A DNA stretch of 12,948 bases from Opitutales bacterium (GCA_049599475.1 JBMYOQ010000101.1:1-12948), one strand, 5' to 3'. Positions 822-9,505 are shown, numbered from the stretch's first letter. A program made the numbers and translations. Notes: generated by a model from the letters alone, not told the origin.

Positions 822-3242
<2,421 letters not shown>

Positions 3243-3310
3243 GACTAAATACTAAATTTTTGATACAGGCGGATGCTCCGGATCTTTGGGTAAAAAGGAA
3301 TTGAGAGAGA

Positions 3311-5947
<2,637 letters not shown>

Positions 5948-5996
5948 TCAATTTGAAACGTTCGGCTAATCTTTGGGCAGGGAGTCGAGCTTTTAT

Positions 5997-6031
5997 AAAA
6001 AAATAAGCCAGAACGTCGTCTGGCCTATTTT
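5997..6031 (-). terminator. Intrinsic terminator-like hairpin between dapF and gyrB
   Basis: The minus strand reads AAAATAGGCCAGA-CGACGT-TCTGGCTTATTTT-TTT: a 13-bp stem with one G-U pair, running into a U tract. It starts about 25 nt after the dapF stop. Confidence 0.65.
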
Positions 6032-6056
6032 CTTAAGATCTATATTTGTAAGAGAA

Positions 6057-6905
6057 TCAAAGTCCCTCGAGGCATTCAAGGTCCAAATGCATGGCGCCGA
6101 CTCGGGTGGTGGGCCCGGTCATCTTGATTTGGAATCCTTCAGCGATTTCAATGAGGAGTTGGCCTCCGGGGGAGTGCACGGTGACTTTTTCGTCTACTAG
6201 GCCTAGCTTGTGAGCAACGGATGCTGCTGCGCTACTGGAGCTACCTGAGGCGAGGGTATATCCTGCGCCGCGTTCCCAGATCTCGATTTGGATATTATTG
6301 CGGTCGAGTACCTTGAGGAACTGTACGTTGGTGCGGTTCGGGAAATTTAGGTGATTTTCGACGATGGGACCGAGTGTGCAGGCTTCTTTCTCAAAAATAT
6401 CCTCCATCGGGAAGACCGCGTGCGGGTTGCCAATCGTCGCGGCGCAGTAGGTGTAGGGCTGGCCATCGAGGATGATTTCTTCGTTGATCACCTCGCGCGG
6501 GTCACCTACCACAGGGATGACGGTGCTATCGAAGGAGACCGCGCCCATTTCGACTTCGATCAGCTTGCCTGCTTTAAATACTTGGCAGTTTACGATCCCG
6601 CCGGGTGTCCACACCGTAAAGGGGGCTTCGGAGACTTTTCCGGTATCATAGAGATAGCGGCAGAAAATGCGCAGACCATTGCCGCTCTTTTCGGCTTCGC
6701 TACCGTCGGGATTGTAGATGCGTAGGCCGAAATCTGCTTCATCTGTTTTAAGCGGTCCGTAAAGAATGCCGTCTGAGCCGAGACCGAAATTTCGGTGGCA
6801 GATGCGCTCAATCTTCTCGGGAGAGAAAATCTCGGGAGCGTTCACTGGATCCAGCACGAGGTAATCATTACCCAGGGCGTGATACTTGACGAATTCTATA
6901 GCCAT
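6057..6905 (-). CDS. dapF: Diaminopimelate epimerase-family protein, Ser/Ser active-site variant
   Basis: DapF motifs FVKYHALGNDY, RNFGLGSDG, IYNPDGSEAEKSGNGLR, IGNPH, FPNRTNVQF, WERGAGYTLASGS and PGG. Both canonical catalytic Cys positions are Ser (S74, S220). Confidence 0.9.
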   Translation of the reverse strand: MAIEFVKYHALGNDYLVLDPVNAPEIFSPEKIERICHRNFGLGSDGILYGPLKTDEADFGLRIYNPDGSEAEKSGNGLRIFCRYLYDTGKVSEAPFTVWTPGGIVNCQVFKAGKLIEVEMGAVSFDSTVIPVVGDPREVINEEIILDGQPYTYCAATIGNPHAVFPMEDIFEKEACTLGPIVENHLNFPNRTNVQFLKVLDRNNIQIEIWERGAGYTLASGSSSSAAASVAHKLGLVDEKVTVHSPGGQLLIEIAEGFQIKMTGPTTRVGAMHLDLECLEGL

Positions 6906-7041
6906 TAAGAATTAAAAGATGAGGTTTTCCTCGAATTCAAATGTAAAAGTCAGATGTCTGCGTGACCCCTGAATGTTACAGCGCCTAGGCCAAAATTTAG
7001 GCAGCCGATGAATGGCGTTAAGGATTAAGGAGGTTGCTTAG

Positions 7042-7135
7042 AGGTAGGGCTGCATCTCCGAGGGAGCCGCAGCGTTCAAGCCGAATTTCAAGCGACAGTG
7101 GCGGCTGCGTGAGGAGTGGACACGCAGCCCTACCT
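7042..7135. repeat. REPIN-like doublet of inverted GTAG-type REP hairpins
   Basis: Left unit AG-GTAG-GGCTGCATCTCCGAGGGAGCC-GC (7042-7070). The right unit on the minus strand is AG-GTAG-GGCTGCGTG-TCCACTCCT-CACGCAGCC-GC (7101-7135), with a perfect 9-bp stem. The outer 12 bp AGGTAGGGCTGC / GCAGCCCTACCT form a perfect inverted repeat. Confidence 0.75.
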
Positions 7136-7167
7136 TTTCGTCATGATTTTGATCCTATTTTATCCCA

Positions 7168-7260
7168 AAGGTCGCGAGTTCGCGTGTCTCATTATGTGTA
7201 GCTGCATTGTTGCTTAGAATTTTGCTTGGCCCCTGTGATATACGCGGACACGCAGCCCTA
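7168..7260. repeat. Degenerate second copy of the same REP doublet
   Basis: GGACACGCAGCCCTA at 7246-7260 is an exact 15-bp direct repeat of 7118-7132. A decayed left partner (GCGTGTC...TGTGTAGCTGC, ~7182-7204) differs from the REP arm mainly by transitions. Confidence 0.5.
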
Positions 7261-7354
7261 TTTTAGATAAGTCTCACAAGTATAGGTGAGCGTGTTTATT
7301 AAAATAGCCCCCTGCGTGCTTTCCATTTCTGAGTTCGCTGTCTAGCCTGCTTGC

Positions 7355-9505
7355 ATGGGCGGAGAGGCGATTGAAGAAACTTTAGTAGGGCTGCATGTTG
7401 ATAGTTCGGGCACCTTGCACACGGCTTGGAGGTCGAGTGCGGGCGTTAGCGCCGAGAGGGAAGATGCCTGGTCGCCGTTTTTATGGAGTCGCTCTGCACT
7501 GGAGTTGACTGACGGAGAGACTGTCGGGCTGGACGGCGCGGGGCCGTGGAAGCATCGCGCTGTATTCGATGATTTCGAAGCATTCAAGGCTGTGAGCAAG
7601 GACGCAGGCTTGAAAGGATCCCTAGAAATTTTGAAGCCCTTTGAGCACCAGATACTCATACAGAAGCAATGGCGTCTGTTTAACGGGCTGGGGTTTGGCG
7701 ATCTGCGGCGCTGTCAGATTGATATTGAGACTGGGTGTGCGACTCCGGGTGGCTTTTCAGATCCCAAGCAAGCGGGTGATCGTGTCTTGGCTATCGGGAT
7801 GAAAATGGGAGACCAGATCGAGCTTATCGAGCTGCAGGAAAATAGCGACGCGGCCGAGCGCGTATTGCTCAAGGAATTTGCTGAAAAGCTCGTGAACTGG
7901 GATCCAGATATCATCGAGGGGCACAATATTTATAAATTCGATCTGAATTACCTTAAAGTGCGCTCGGCACGGTATCGCGTGAAGCCCCAGTGGGGGCGTT
8001 TTGGGGCCCTTGCAGCGACCCGTAACAGCCGTATTCGCATCGCGGAACGCTGGATTGATTTCCCTAGGTGTGAAATTCCGGGTCGTACCGTGTTTGATAC
8101 CTACCTCATGATACAGATCTTCGATCTTACCAAGCGCGATTTACCTGCTTATGGTCTAAAAGATGTAGCGAAGTATTTTGGCATCTCTGGTGTCGACGAG
8201 GATGATCGGACTTACATTGAGGGCTCCGAGATTGCCAATACATTTGAGGCCGACCGCGAGCTATTCCGTGAATACCTGCGCGATGATTTGCGAGAGACTG
8301 AGGCGGTAGCCGATATCCTGCTGCCTACCTATATTGCGCAGACTCAAAATTTTCCCATTTTGCTACAGGAAGCTTCGTTGCGGGGGACGGGTGCTAAGGT
8401 GGATCTGCTCTTCCTGGATAAATACTATCACTTGAACGGTGCGCTTCCGGACCCTGAGGGCGCGGCTCGATTTGAGGGGGCTTTTTCGAAGAGCTTTGAG
8501 ACAGGTGTATATGAAAATGTACTACATTACGATGTCGCCTCACTCTATCCGAGTCTGTTGCTTCTTATCGGTGAGAACCCGAAAGGAGATGATCTGGGCG
8601 TATTCACACCATTATTACAAAATTTAAGAGAGGAGCGCCTCGAATACAAACGCCTTGCAAAGGAGGCTGAGAGTGCGGAAGAGCGTCGAGAATACCATGC
8701 TCGGCAGGCAAGTTTTAAGATTTTGATCAATTCTTTCTATGGCTATTTGGGGTTTGGTGGGGCCCGCTTTGGCGATGGCGATCTGGCCGCCGAAGTGACT
8801 CGCCGGGGGAGAGAGTTACTTCAAGAACTGATTGTGCGCTTTCAAGATGCCGGTGCCACGGTATTAGAGGCGGATACGGACGGTATCTATGTTTCGAGTG
8901 AAGCTTATTATACAGAGCCAGAGTCCCTGCTGGCTCAGGTATCTCAGGAACTTCCCGAGGGCATCAGCTTGGAATTTGATGGAGCCTATGAAGCAATGTT
9001 TTGCTACAAGGCAAAAAATTACGCCCTGCGTGAGGGGGATAAAGTGCGCATCCGGGGATCGGCTTTGCGGTCTCGGGGGATTGAGCCGTTTTTAAAAAAA
9101 TTATCGGATCGCTTGATTCAGTGGGTTCTTGGCTTGCATGAGGAGTCGCCGTTGATACTCGCGGATGCCTTGGAGACTCAAATAAAATCGGGTGATGCAC
9201 CGATCGATTTGTTGGCGAAAAGCGAGTTTTTGAGCCAAAACCCCGAAGCTTACAAGAAACATATTGATGGCGGGGGAAAGCCTCGCCGCGCATCTTTAGA
9301 AGTTGCCTTAAAAATGGAACCCATGCCGAGAATGGGTGAGCGGGTAAGCTATTTCATTGGGCCCAAGGAAAAGGGGCAAACCTCTGATTGGCAGCGGGCT
9401 TTTGCCGTCGATGCGTATGATATGCTGAGTTGCCCCTATGATGCTAAGTATTACATCAAAAAGCTCGGGGACTGGAAGAAGCGGTATGCAGATTTTCTCA
9501 AGTGA
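7355..9505 (+). CDS. polB: Family B DNA polymerase with 3'-5' proofreading exonuclease domain (716 aa)
   Basis: ExoI DIET (D123/E125), ExoII GHNIYKFD (D196), ExoIII YLRDD (Y307/D311). Polymerase motif A YDVASLYPS (D393), motif B KILINSFYG (K455), motif C EADTDG (D507/D509), then KAKNY. The start codon is uncertain by a few residues. Confidence 0.93.
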   Translation: MGGEAIEETLVGLHVDSSGTLHTAWRSSAGVSAEREDAWSPFLWSRSALELTDGETVGLDGAGPWKHRAVFDDFEAFKAVSKDAGLKGSLEILKPFEHQILIQKQWRLFNGLGFGDLRRCQIDIETGCATPGGFSDPKQAGDRVLAIGMKMGDQIELIELQENSDAAERVLLKEFAEKLVNWDPDIIEGHNIYKFDLNYLKVRSARYRVKPQWGRFGALAATRNSRIRIAERWIDFPRCEIPGRTVFDTYLMIQIFDLTKRDLPAYGLKDVAKYFGISGVDEDDRTYIEGSEIANTFEADRELFREYLRDDLRETEAVADILLPTYIAQTQNFPILLQEASLRGTGAKVDLLFLDKYYHLNGALPDPEGAARFEGAFSKSFETGVYENVLHYDVASLYPSLLLLIGENPKGDDLGVFTPLLQNLREERLEYKRLAKEAESAEERREYHARQASFKILINSFYGYLGFGGARFGDGDLAAEVTRRGRELLQELIVRFQDAGATVLEADTDGIYVSSEAYYTEPESLLAQVSQELPEGISLEFDGAYEAMFCYKAKNYALREGDKVRIRGSALRSRGIEPFLKKLSDRLIQWVLGLHEESPLILADALETQIKSGDAPIDLLAKSEFLSQNPEAYKKHIDGGGKPRRASLEVALKMEPMPRMGERVSYFIGPKEKGQTSDWQRAFAVDAYDMLSCPYDAKYYIKKLGDWKKRYADFLK

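Follow-up and report, generated by a model that had tools for sequence, protein, structure and literature searches.

Can diaminopimelate epimerase work without its two catalytic cysteines? The question is raised by a stretch of 12,948 nucleotides from a marine Opitutales bacterium (GCA_049599475.1 JBMYOQ010000101.1:1-12948; hereafter "the window", meaning this whole stretch), which carries a dapF gene with a serine codon at each of the two positions that hold cysteine in canonical DapF (EC 5.1.1.7), and which is the only DapF-family epimerase gene of its source. Textbooks describe cofactor-independent amino acid racemases as working with two cysteines, and DapF has been studied as an antibiotic target. 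From the sequence, its relatives and the genomes in which they occur, we conclude that the window gene very probably encodes a working epimerase of LL- and meso-diaminopimelate (DAP) that is independent of pyridoxal 5'-phosphate (PLP) and belongs to a natural type with two catalytic serines (Ser/Ser, as opposed to the usual Cys/Cys).

Natural DapFs with two catalytic serines and a retained fold were described recently (Lamer, van Belkum, Chen et al., J Mol Biol 437:169375, 2025, as cited in a 2026 paper on Pseudomonas aeruginosa DapF, PMC13728532), and the citing passages state that these enzymes are active on DAP. According to the same passages, Anabaena sp. YBS01 carries a single Ser/Ser DapF beside a single Cys/Cys one, replacement of Ser by Cys inactivated its Ser/Ser enzyme, and such a pair is suggested to help against oxidative stress. 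A first-pass annotation of the window, made from the sequence alone, had pointed to earlier descriptions of Ser/Ser homologs, and in this it was right. The window gene is thus a further example of the enzyme kind described in 2025, and its own addition is modest.

The dapF gene and its two serine codons

The features on which the argument rests are as follows.

6057..6905, minus strand: dapF, very probably a Ser/Ser diaminopimelate epimerase (open frame, TIGR00652, two PF01678 domains, AlphaFold2 model, Foldseek)
6684..6686, minus strand: codon AGC of Ser74, at the first catalytic cysteine position (codon reading, and alignment to the cysteine of MCGNG/QCGNG in 5ha4, 9mro and 4ik0)
6246..6248, minus strand: codon TCA of Ser220, at the second catalytic cysteine position (codon reading, and alignment to the cysteine of LACGTG/ACGSG)
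6669..6698, minus strand: motif EAEKSGNGLR, residues 70-79, the clade signature near Ser74, with K73 for the usual Met (identical or nearly so in the 120 closest listed homologs)
6222..6263, minus strand: motif GYTLASGSSSSAAA, residues 215-228, the clade signature near Ser220, with Y216 for Glu and S223 for Gly (120 listed homologs and a comparison of 222 sequences)

Translation of the window gives an open frame of 282 amino acids and a stop, whose product matches the DapF equivalog model TIGR00652 over residues 3-270 of 282 (239.8 bits, cut-off 114.65) and the DAP_epimerase domain PF01678 twice. Read from the reverse complement, Ser74 stands in the context EAEKSGNG and Ser220 in TLASGSSSSAA, and HMMER alignment to the solved DapFs 5ha4, 9mro and 4ik0 (E about 1e-54 to 1e-49) places the two residues in the columns of the two catalytic cysteines. 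The thiol-thiolate pair of a Cys/Cys DapF is therefore absent, which sets the window protein apart from the textbook enzyme, but not from the Ser/Ser form described in 2025.

These results bear out what the first-pass annotation had read from the sequence: AGC at 6686-6684 as Ser74 and TCA at 6248-6246 as Ser220, a full-length frame, and intact GNDY, YNPDG, GNPH, TNV and WERG motifs, all five of which are found in the translation. It had also judged a sequencing error unlikely, on the ground that TCA is two substitutions away from any cysteine codon, and the comparison of TCA with TGY upholds this. That an ordinary Cys/Cys gene was misread or misassembled at the serine codons has by now a negligible probability, and we regard that reading as refuted, since besides the two changes needed at TCA all 120 listed homologs are Ser/Ser, and no variant at either Ser codon is listed in the public contigs that match the window. 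One of these contigs, of 8131 bases, covers positions 6000-7000 with a sole difference at 6394 and may come from the window's own source; another, of 217 bases, was produced by a different study and matches the window without change across the Ser220 codon. No RNA data set is listed among the public sets that carry the window sequence.

A coherent and widespread Ser/Ser clade

The Ser/Ser variant is real and widespread. Its closest listed homologs, one of the 120 being the window's own record, carry names from Verrucomicrobia, Opitutales, Cerasicoccus and Didemnitutus, and both signature motifs, EAEKSGNGLR and GYTLASGSSSSAAA, are nearly invariant across them. Among the best 150 representatives of clusters at 50% identity, 124 are Ser/Ser and 17 are fragments with Ser at the single site covered, the others being S/C (two), T/C, S/T, C/S, A/S, R/S and L/S (one each) and Cys/Cys (one). 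A profile built from 40 diverse Ser/Ser sequences again returned 120 listed matches that are Ser/Ser without exception, all with K73 and Y216. At the codon level, site 74 is AGY in 98 and TCN in 22 of the fetched loci, and site 220 is TCN in 103 and AGC, with no other AGY codon, in 13; as both codon boxes are used at both sites, serine has been kept through changes of codon box.

A FastTree phylogeny of 272 sequences, computed with the two catalytic columns masked, places all 222 Ser/Ser sequences in one clade free of Cys/Cys sequences, with a support of 0.86 on the Ser/Ser side and 0.999 for the side that holds all 40 Cys/Cys sequences. Nested among the Ser/Ser sequences are eight deviating variants (T/C, two S/C, C/S, S/T, A/S, R/S and L/S). 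No outgroup was used, the root being set at the midpoint, and most of the Cys/Cys sequences are from Verrucomicrobiota; with so small a Cys/Cys sample and such rooting, the tree shows the coherence of the clade and not a single origin relative to all DapF diversity.

Fold and substrate pocket

An AlphaFold2 model with the 40-sequence alignment as input (predicted local distance difference test score 96.6, predicted template modeling score 0.92) has two pseudo-symmetric alpha/beta domains and the catalytic positions at the N-termini of two central helices, S74 directly preceding helix 75-87 and S220 directly preceding helix 221-233, as the catalytic cysteines do. The best Foldseek match is the closed, ligand-bound Anabaena DapF 9mro (template modeling (TM) score 0.92, root-mean-square deviation 1.9 A over 279 columns), followed by other DapFs among all top matches, including 5ha4 (TM 0.89); proline racemase-like and PhzF folds rank far below. 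No natural Ser/Ser DapF was found among the PDB chains searched with HMMER and Foldseek, and 9mro itself is the Cys/Cys enzyme of Anabaena according to its description in PMC12039745. The O-ureidoserine racemase DcsC was considered as an alternative relative and set aside, as its chain 7vdy matches at E 2.7e-31 against 3e-54 for the DapF chains, which places the window protein closer to DapF.

In Haemophilus influenzae DapF, we take N11, N64, N157, N190, E208 and R209 to be the residues that contact the far end and the alpha-amino group of DAP, and N64, N157, N190, E208 and R209 to be those that hold the far end in the inhibitor complexes. When 40 Ser/Ser sequences are aligned, N13, N65, N193, E211 and R212 are invariant, together with S74 and S220, and N160 and H162 are present in at least 90%. 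The 40 Cys/Cys sequences share the counterparts of the DAP-contacting residues, with the one exception of position 160, where most of them have Val. More broadly, N13, D14, N65, D67, G68, G75, N76, R79, G159, P161, H162, N193, E211, R212, G213, T217 and G221 reach at least 90% in both the 222 Ser/Ser and the 40 Cys/Cys sequences. Because the far-end counterparts N65, N160, N193, E211 and R212 are invariant or nearly so, the substrate pocket, given these residue roles, still looks built for DAP.

Around the serines the two groups differ consistently. The window protein has, in place of the canonical residue, K73 for Met (K in 89% of the Ser/Ser against M in 88% of the Cys/Cys sequences), I80 for Cys (99% against 97%), Y216 for Glu (90% against 85%), S223 for Gly (97% against 100%) and Y15 for Phe (99% against 93%). 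Further consistent differences between Ser/Ser and Cys/Cys sequences are Y versus M at position 8, Q versus N at position 195 and I versus T at position 209.

The DAP pathway in the source genome

The genome from which the window comes is 96.6% complete and contains one DapF-family gene. The first-pass annotation had proposed a look in this genome for a second, Cys/Cys dapF, for ddh and for dapL: dapL, the gene for LL-DAP aminotransferase, was found (590 bits, cut-off 364.7), and neither a second dapF nor a match to meso-DAP dehydrogenase (Ddh) was. Also present are MurE (493 bits) and a LysA-like decarboxylase (264.5 bits, with lysA as its best match). Because LL-DAP is made, meso-DAP is needed and no bypass was found, the window dapF is the only recognizable way from LL-DAP to meso-DAP here, and the pathway needs this step. 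For Opitutaceae, Rast et al. (2017; PMC5303756) list the DapL route with DapF and make no comment there on the cysteines.

A PLP-dependent route of DAP epimerization, referred to as DapF2, is described in PMC13759103. According to that description (GapMind, 2026), DapF2 is of the Alr2 type and often annotated as alanine racemase, and was accordingly set aside as unrelated to the DapF family of the window. No Alr-family candidate for this route was found in the window genome, where TIGR00492 has no match, probably owing to an assembly gap. The sole PF01168 match in this genome is a frame of 237 amino acids at C4:115903-116514, which is too short for Alr.

Distribution in Opitutales, the phylum and beyond

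Exclusive use of the Ser/Ser form is common in the order. Thirty-five of 40 related Opitutales genomes have one Ser/Ser gene and no second DapF-family match, and three of these 35 measure 0.8-1.3 Mb (G009, G013 and G026). As for the other five, one has dapF split across two contigs with Ser at each site, one has an N-terminal piece only, with Ser at the covered site, one (G025, 0.9 Mb) encodes a Ser/Cys hybrid with EAEMSGNG and SSCGSG (L039, C6:41500-42600), one (G022, 3.9 Mb) has a Cys/Cys DapF alone, 28% identical to that of the window (L040, C52:500-1900), and one (G014, 80% complete) has no DapF-family match. A further 21 genomes of the same order gave single DapF-family matches, assessed by identity alone (60-65%).

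In the wider phylum, the catalytic residues were read in 40 fetched loci, eight from sister orders of the same class and 32 from other classes. The eight sister-order loci all have Cys at the sites read (seven are Cys/Cys, one was read at the first site only) and are 27-32% identical to the window DapF, while the 32 loci from other classes comprise 28 Cys/Cys, one with Cys at the first site only and three Ser/Ser (G108, G114 and G115). The identity of about 30% to the sister-order Cys/Cys genes suggests that the Ser/Ser gene came into Opitutales from outside and did not arise by mutation of a resident copy, as far as sequence comparison can tell.

Outside the phylum, a genome scan with the clade pattern gave 80 loci, of which 79 encode both serines in a single frame and the remaining one (L144) is broken into two frames, each with Ser. 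The record titles include Pirellulales, Polyangiaceae, Anaerolineae, Armatimonadota, Desulfobacteraceae, SAR324, Bdellovibrionales, Acidobacteriota and Sporomusa, as well as a Christensenellaceae chromosome, a Geopsychrobacteraceae chromosome and the isolate Pseudomonas sp. 21; because many of the records are binned metagenome genomes, some of the taxon labels may be wrong. Five genomes outside Opitutales, labeled Polyangiaceae, Burkholderiales, Verrucomicrobiota, Anaerolineae and SAR324 (G190, G191 and G193-G195; completeness figures not given), have the Ser/Ser gene as their sole DapF-family match. Ser/Ser and Cys/Cys copies occur together in G186, G187, G189 and G192, and G188 has three copies, namely Cys/Cys, S/C and Ser/Ser. 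The Ser/Cys form on the Christensenellaceae chromosome (L174, G188:C1:249493-253314), with EGEVSGNALR and GETWACGTG, lies within a very long open frame of 1349 amino acids.

Gene linkages and fusions of Ser/Ser dapF

The neighbor scan covered 84 of 125 flanking open reading frames (ORFs); because the other 41, which were short ORFs and several verrucomicrobial-type loci, were dropped by hand, the neighbor counts represent a sample. Directly downstream of Ser/Ser dapF we found DapL in a Polyangiaceae locus (L103; TIGR03542, 545.6 bits) and in an Ignavibacteriota locus (L156; NF004937, 643.6 bits), and dapA in a locus from Verrucomicrobiota (L126; 374 bits). In a Burkholderiales locus (L117), the next genes after dapF are a DUF484 gene and one for a XerC-type recombinase, an order that we take to resemble dapF-yigA-xerC of Escherichia coli, and in a SAR324 genome a gene for a LysE-type exporter comes after Ser/Ser dapF. 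GNAT acetyltransferase genes adjoin Ser/Ser dapF at five loci from different phyla (L106, L147, L159, L166 and L167), and no NCBIfam model matched them.

Fusions were sought among 11 long cluster representatives, using gene calls at the protein level only; ten of these have a Ser/Ser domain and one (P0266) an S/C domain. The DapF domain is fused to a LysA-type decarboxylase domain in three (P0133, P0156 and P0144), to a Mur-ligase domain in one (P0143), to a whole alanine racemase in two (P0157 and P0205), to GNAT in one (P0152), and to a methyltransferase and a GGACT domain in one each; two have nothing extra.

These data bear on whether the Ser/Ser protein could be a catalytically dead DapF fold that is kept for binding or regulation, such as sensing DAP or holding a protein partner in the way E. 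coli DapF associates with RppH. As an acid or base, serine falls far short of a thiol, the E. coli partnership with RppH is independent of activity according to PMC13728532, and the activity reported for natural Ser/Ser enzymes comes at second hand, from a citing paper. However, S74 and S220 are present in 100% of the 222 sequences with both codon boxes in use, which would be unexpected if the two positions were chemically idle. The gene is also retained as the only DapF in genomes of 0.8-1.3 Mb, it is fused to LysA-type and Mur-ligase domains, and the statement quoted in PMC13728532 is that Ser/Ser enzymes are active. Taken together, a dead fold appears very unlikely to us.

D-glutamate and a possible change of function

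The first-pass annotation had left the choice between a two-base epimerase that works with serine and an enzyme whose substrate or role has changed. The former is the better supported, by the conserved DAP residues, the sole DapF in the genome and the pathway linkages and fusions. In its fullest form, the second option says that the protein binds DAP-like molecules and has a changed or widened job, acting on another amino acid or on D-glutamate as well, while true DAP epimerization is slow and takes place elsewhere.

What draws attention to D-glutamate is that none of 41 Opitutales genomes at least 90% complete has a glutamate racemase (MurI, TIGR00067) over the cut-off, the two weak matches reaching about 29 bits. 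The window protein resembles the bifunctional DapF/glutamate racemase of Chlamydia trachomatis (NF038284), which presumably keeps its catalytic cysteines, in being a DapF of the Planctomycetes-Verrucomicrobia-Chlamydiae (PVC) group from a lineage without a recognizable MurI. DapF has been proposed as the D-glutamate source in MurI-less PVC bacteria (Liechti et al., 2018; PMC5885031). A shift or broadening of function would also fit with the coexistence of Cys/Cys DapF in at least five genomes, with the GNAT genes that flank Ser/Ser dapF at five scanned loci and the one GNAT fusion, and with the tolerance of E. coli to the loss of dapF (PMC13759103).

We nevertheless consider such a change unlikely. 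Throughout the clade, the residues taken to bind the far end of DAP do not vary, and the linkages and fusions involve DapL, DapA, LysA-type and Mur-ligase proteins, which are makers or users of DAP. Unlike the chlamydial enzyme, the window protein scores only 60.9 bits with NF038284, against a cut-off of 350. D-glutamate could moreover be produced without DapF by a D-amino-acid-aminotransferase-like gene, found in 33 of the 41 Opitutales genomes (mostly at about 185-235 bits, cut-off 277), together with Alr, which is over the TIGR00492 cut-off in 33 of the 41, though not matched in the window genome. Finally, DAP epimerase activity is attributed to Ser/Ser enzymes by Lamer et al., as cited in PMC13728532.

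A broader idea combines both functions: in Opitutales the Ser/Ser enzyme, as the sole DapF and not a back-up against stress, would have displaced the Cys/Cys form of sister orders, about 30% identical to it, and it might also supply D-glutamate for the wall by thiol-free chemistry, as has been proposed for the chlamydial DapF, the latter because no recognizable glutamate racemase was found in the 41 genomes of the order. We hold this combination to be quite improbable.

Weighing a probable housekeeping epimerase

For the window gene, a housekeeping LL-/meso-DAP epimerase is the most likely function, because the DAP residues are kept, because it is the sole DapF beside DapL, a LysA-like decarboxylase and MurE in the absence of Ddh, and because of the linkages and fusions seen elsewhere in the clade.

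Several points weigh on the other side. The activity of natural Ser/Ser DapFs is drawn here from passages in a citing paper, and these concern neither the window protein nor its close relatives. No cyanobacterial name is found among the named homologs, the pattern-scan records or the profile matches listed; kinship of the Anabaena sp. YBS01 Ser/Ser enzyme with this clade is no more than likely, because all 222 sampled Ser/Ser sequences fall in one clade. Engineered Cys-to-Ser changes in the related racemase HisR slow or hinder catalysis, as reported in a passage of PMC11602996. The LysA-like gene of the window genome is under the equivalog cut-off (264.5 against 297.9 bits), and Opitutaceae were found to contain ornithine as well as DAP, the latter at roughly ten times less than in E. 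coli (Rast et al., 2017). A sole dapF also does not prove a need for its activity, as E. coli without dapF grows, with another enzyme slowly epimerizing DAP (PMC13759103). When the genes of 65 loci were clustered, no neighbor family recurred beside Ser/Ser dapF, the neighborhoods being mostly variable. Lastly, Ser/Ser stands beside Cys/Cys in Pseudomonas sp. 21, on the Geopsychrobacteraceae and Christensenellaceae chromosomes, and in gammaproteobacterial and Ignavibacteriota metagenome-assembled genomes (MAGs), a coexistence that could mean different jobs for the two copies.

Proposed mechanism and comparison with known enzymes

For a working Ser/Ser epimerase, we propose that DapL makes LL-DAP, that the window DapF would interconvert LL- and meso-DAP, and that meso-DAP would pass to the LysA-like decarboxylase for lysine and to MurE for peptidoglycan. 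The two-domain fold would close on DAP, with the far (L) end held by N65, N160, N193, E211 and R212. Ser74 and Ser220, each at the N-terminus of a central helix, would then flank the reacting alpha-carbon from opposite sides, where a Cys/Cys enzyme has its thiol and thiolate, and may act as the acid/base pair of a two-base mechanism. The helix dipoles, together with K73 beside Ser74, Y216 and S223 around Ser220, and Y15, may make the hydroxyls usable. Sequence, fold, conservation, pathway context and clade are shown by the data above; the activity of this particular protein, proton transfer by the serines themselves and the tuning by K73, Y216, Y15 and S223 are inferred.

Compared with canonical Cys/Cys DapFs of known structure (5ha4 from Acinetobacter baumannii, 9mro from Anabaena, 4ijz from E. 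coli, and 1gqz/2gke from H. influenzae), the window protein has the same length, the two PF01678 domains, the fold (TM 0.83-0.92), the GND, NPDGS, GNPH, TNV and ERG motifs and the same pathway role, but only 27-38% identity, and the Ser/Ser sequences form a clade of their own. It shares the serine at a catalytic position and the fold with the engineered C73S and C217S mutants of H. influenzae DapF (2q9h and 2q9j); unlike these single laboratory substitutions in a Cys/Cys background, the natural clade has both serines and co-varying neighbors. A close parallel is the Ser/Ser DapF of Anabaena sp. YBS01, with serine at both catalytic positions and an otherwise ordinary DapF fold. In contrast to Anabaena, where the Ser/Ser enzyme accompanies a Cys/Cys one, it stands alone in the window genome and in 35 of the 40 sampled Opitutales genomes.

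A large natural Ser/Ser clade, which in some orders has fully replaced the cysteine form, means that the thiol pair is not obligatory, a point already in print in 2025 (Lamer et al., via PMC13728532). Inhibitors directed at cysteine, or redox control, would not apply to Ser/Ser bacteria. The order-wide exclusive use of Ser/Ser in Opitutales, the pathway linkages and fusions supporting function, and the residue signature K73, I80, Y216, S223 and Y15 may each go beyond the 2025 paper, and these co-varying residues could explain the reactivity of the serines.

Other features of the window

The surroundings of dapF include the following.

6007..6024, strand not assigned: GC-rich, terminator-like hairpin in the dapF-gyrB interval, with T-runs on either strand (pattern scan of the plus strand; in the minus-strand reading TTATTTT comes after the stem; a consensus match only)
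822..5830, minus strand: gyrB (3311-5830) and gyrA (822-3242)
7355..9505, plus strand: gene for a family B DNA polymerase-like protein of 716 amino acids
10140..12799, plus strand: two-component pair

The gyrB and gyrA genes lie downstream of dapF on the same strand, with the hairpin in between, and a promoter scan found no sigma-70-like promoter in 5800-7400. The polymerase-like gene is divergent from dapF and remains far under every NCBIfam Pol II cut-off (e.g., 104.8 against 570 bits); in a Ruficoccus MAG (L088), too, the Ser/Ser dapF has such a gene at its flank. In the two-component pair, the gene for a histidine kinase of 669 amino acids (HisKA_3, with a weak F5/8 type C match) runs into the beginning of a gene for a NarL/LuxR-type response regulator.

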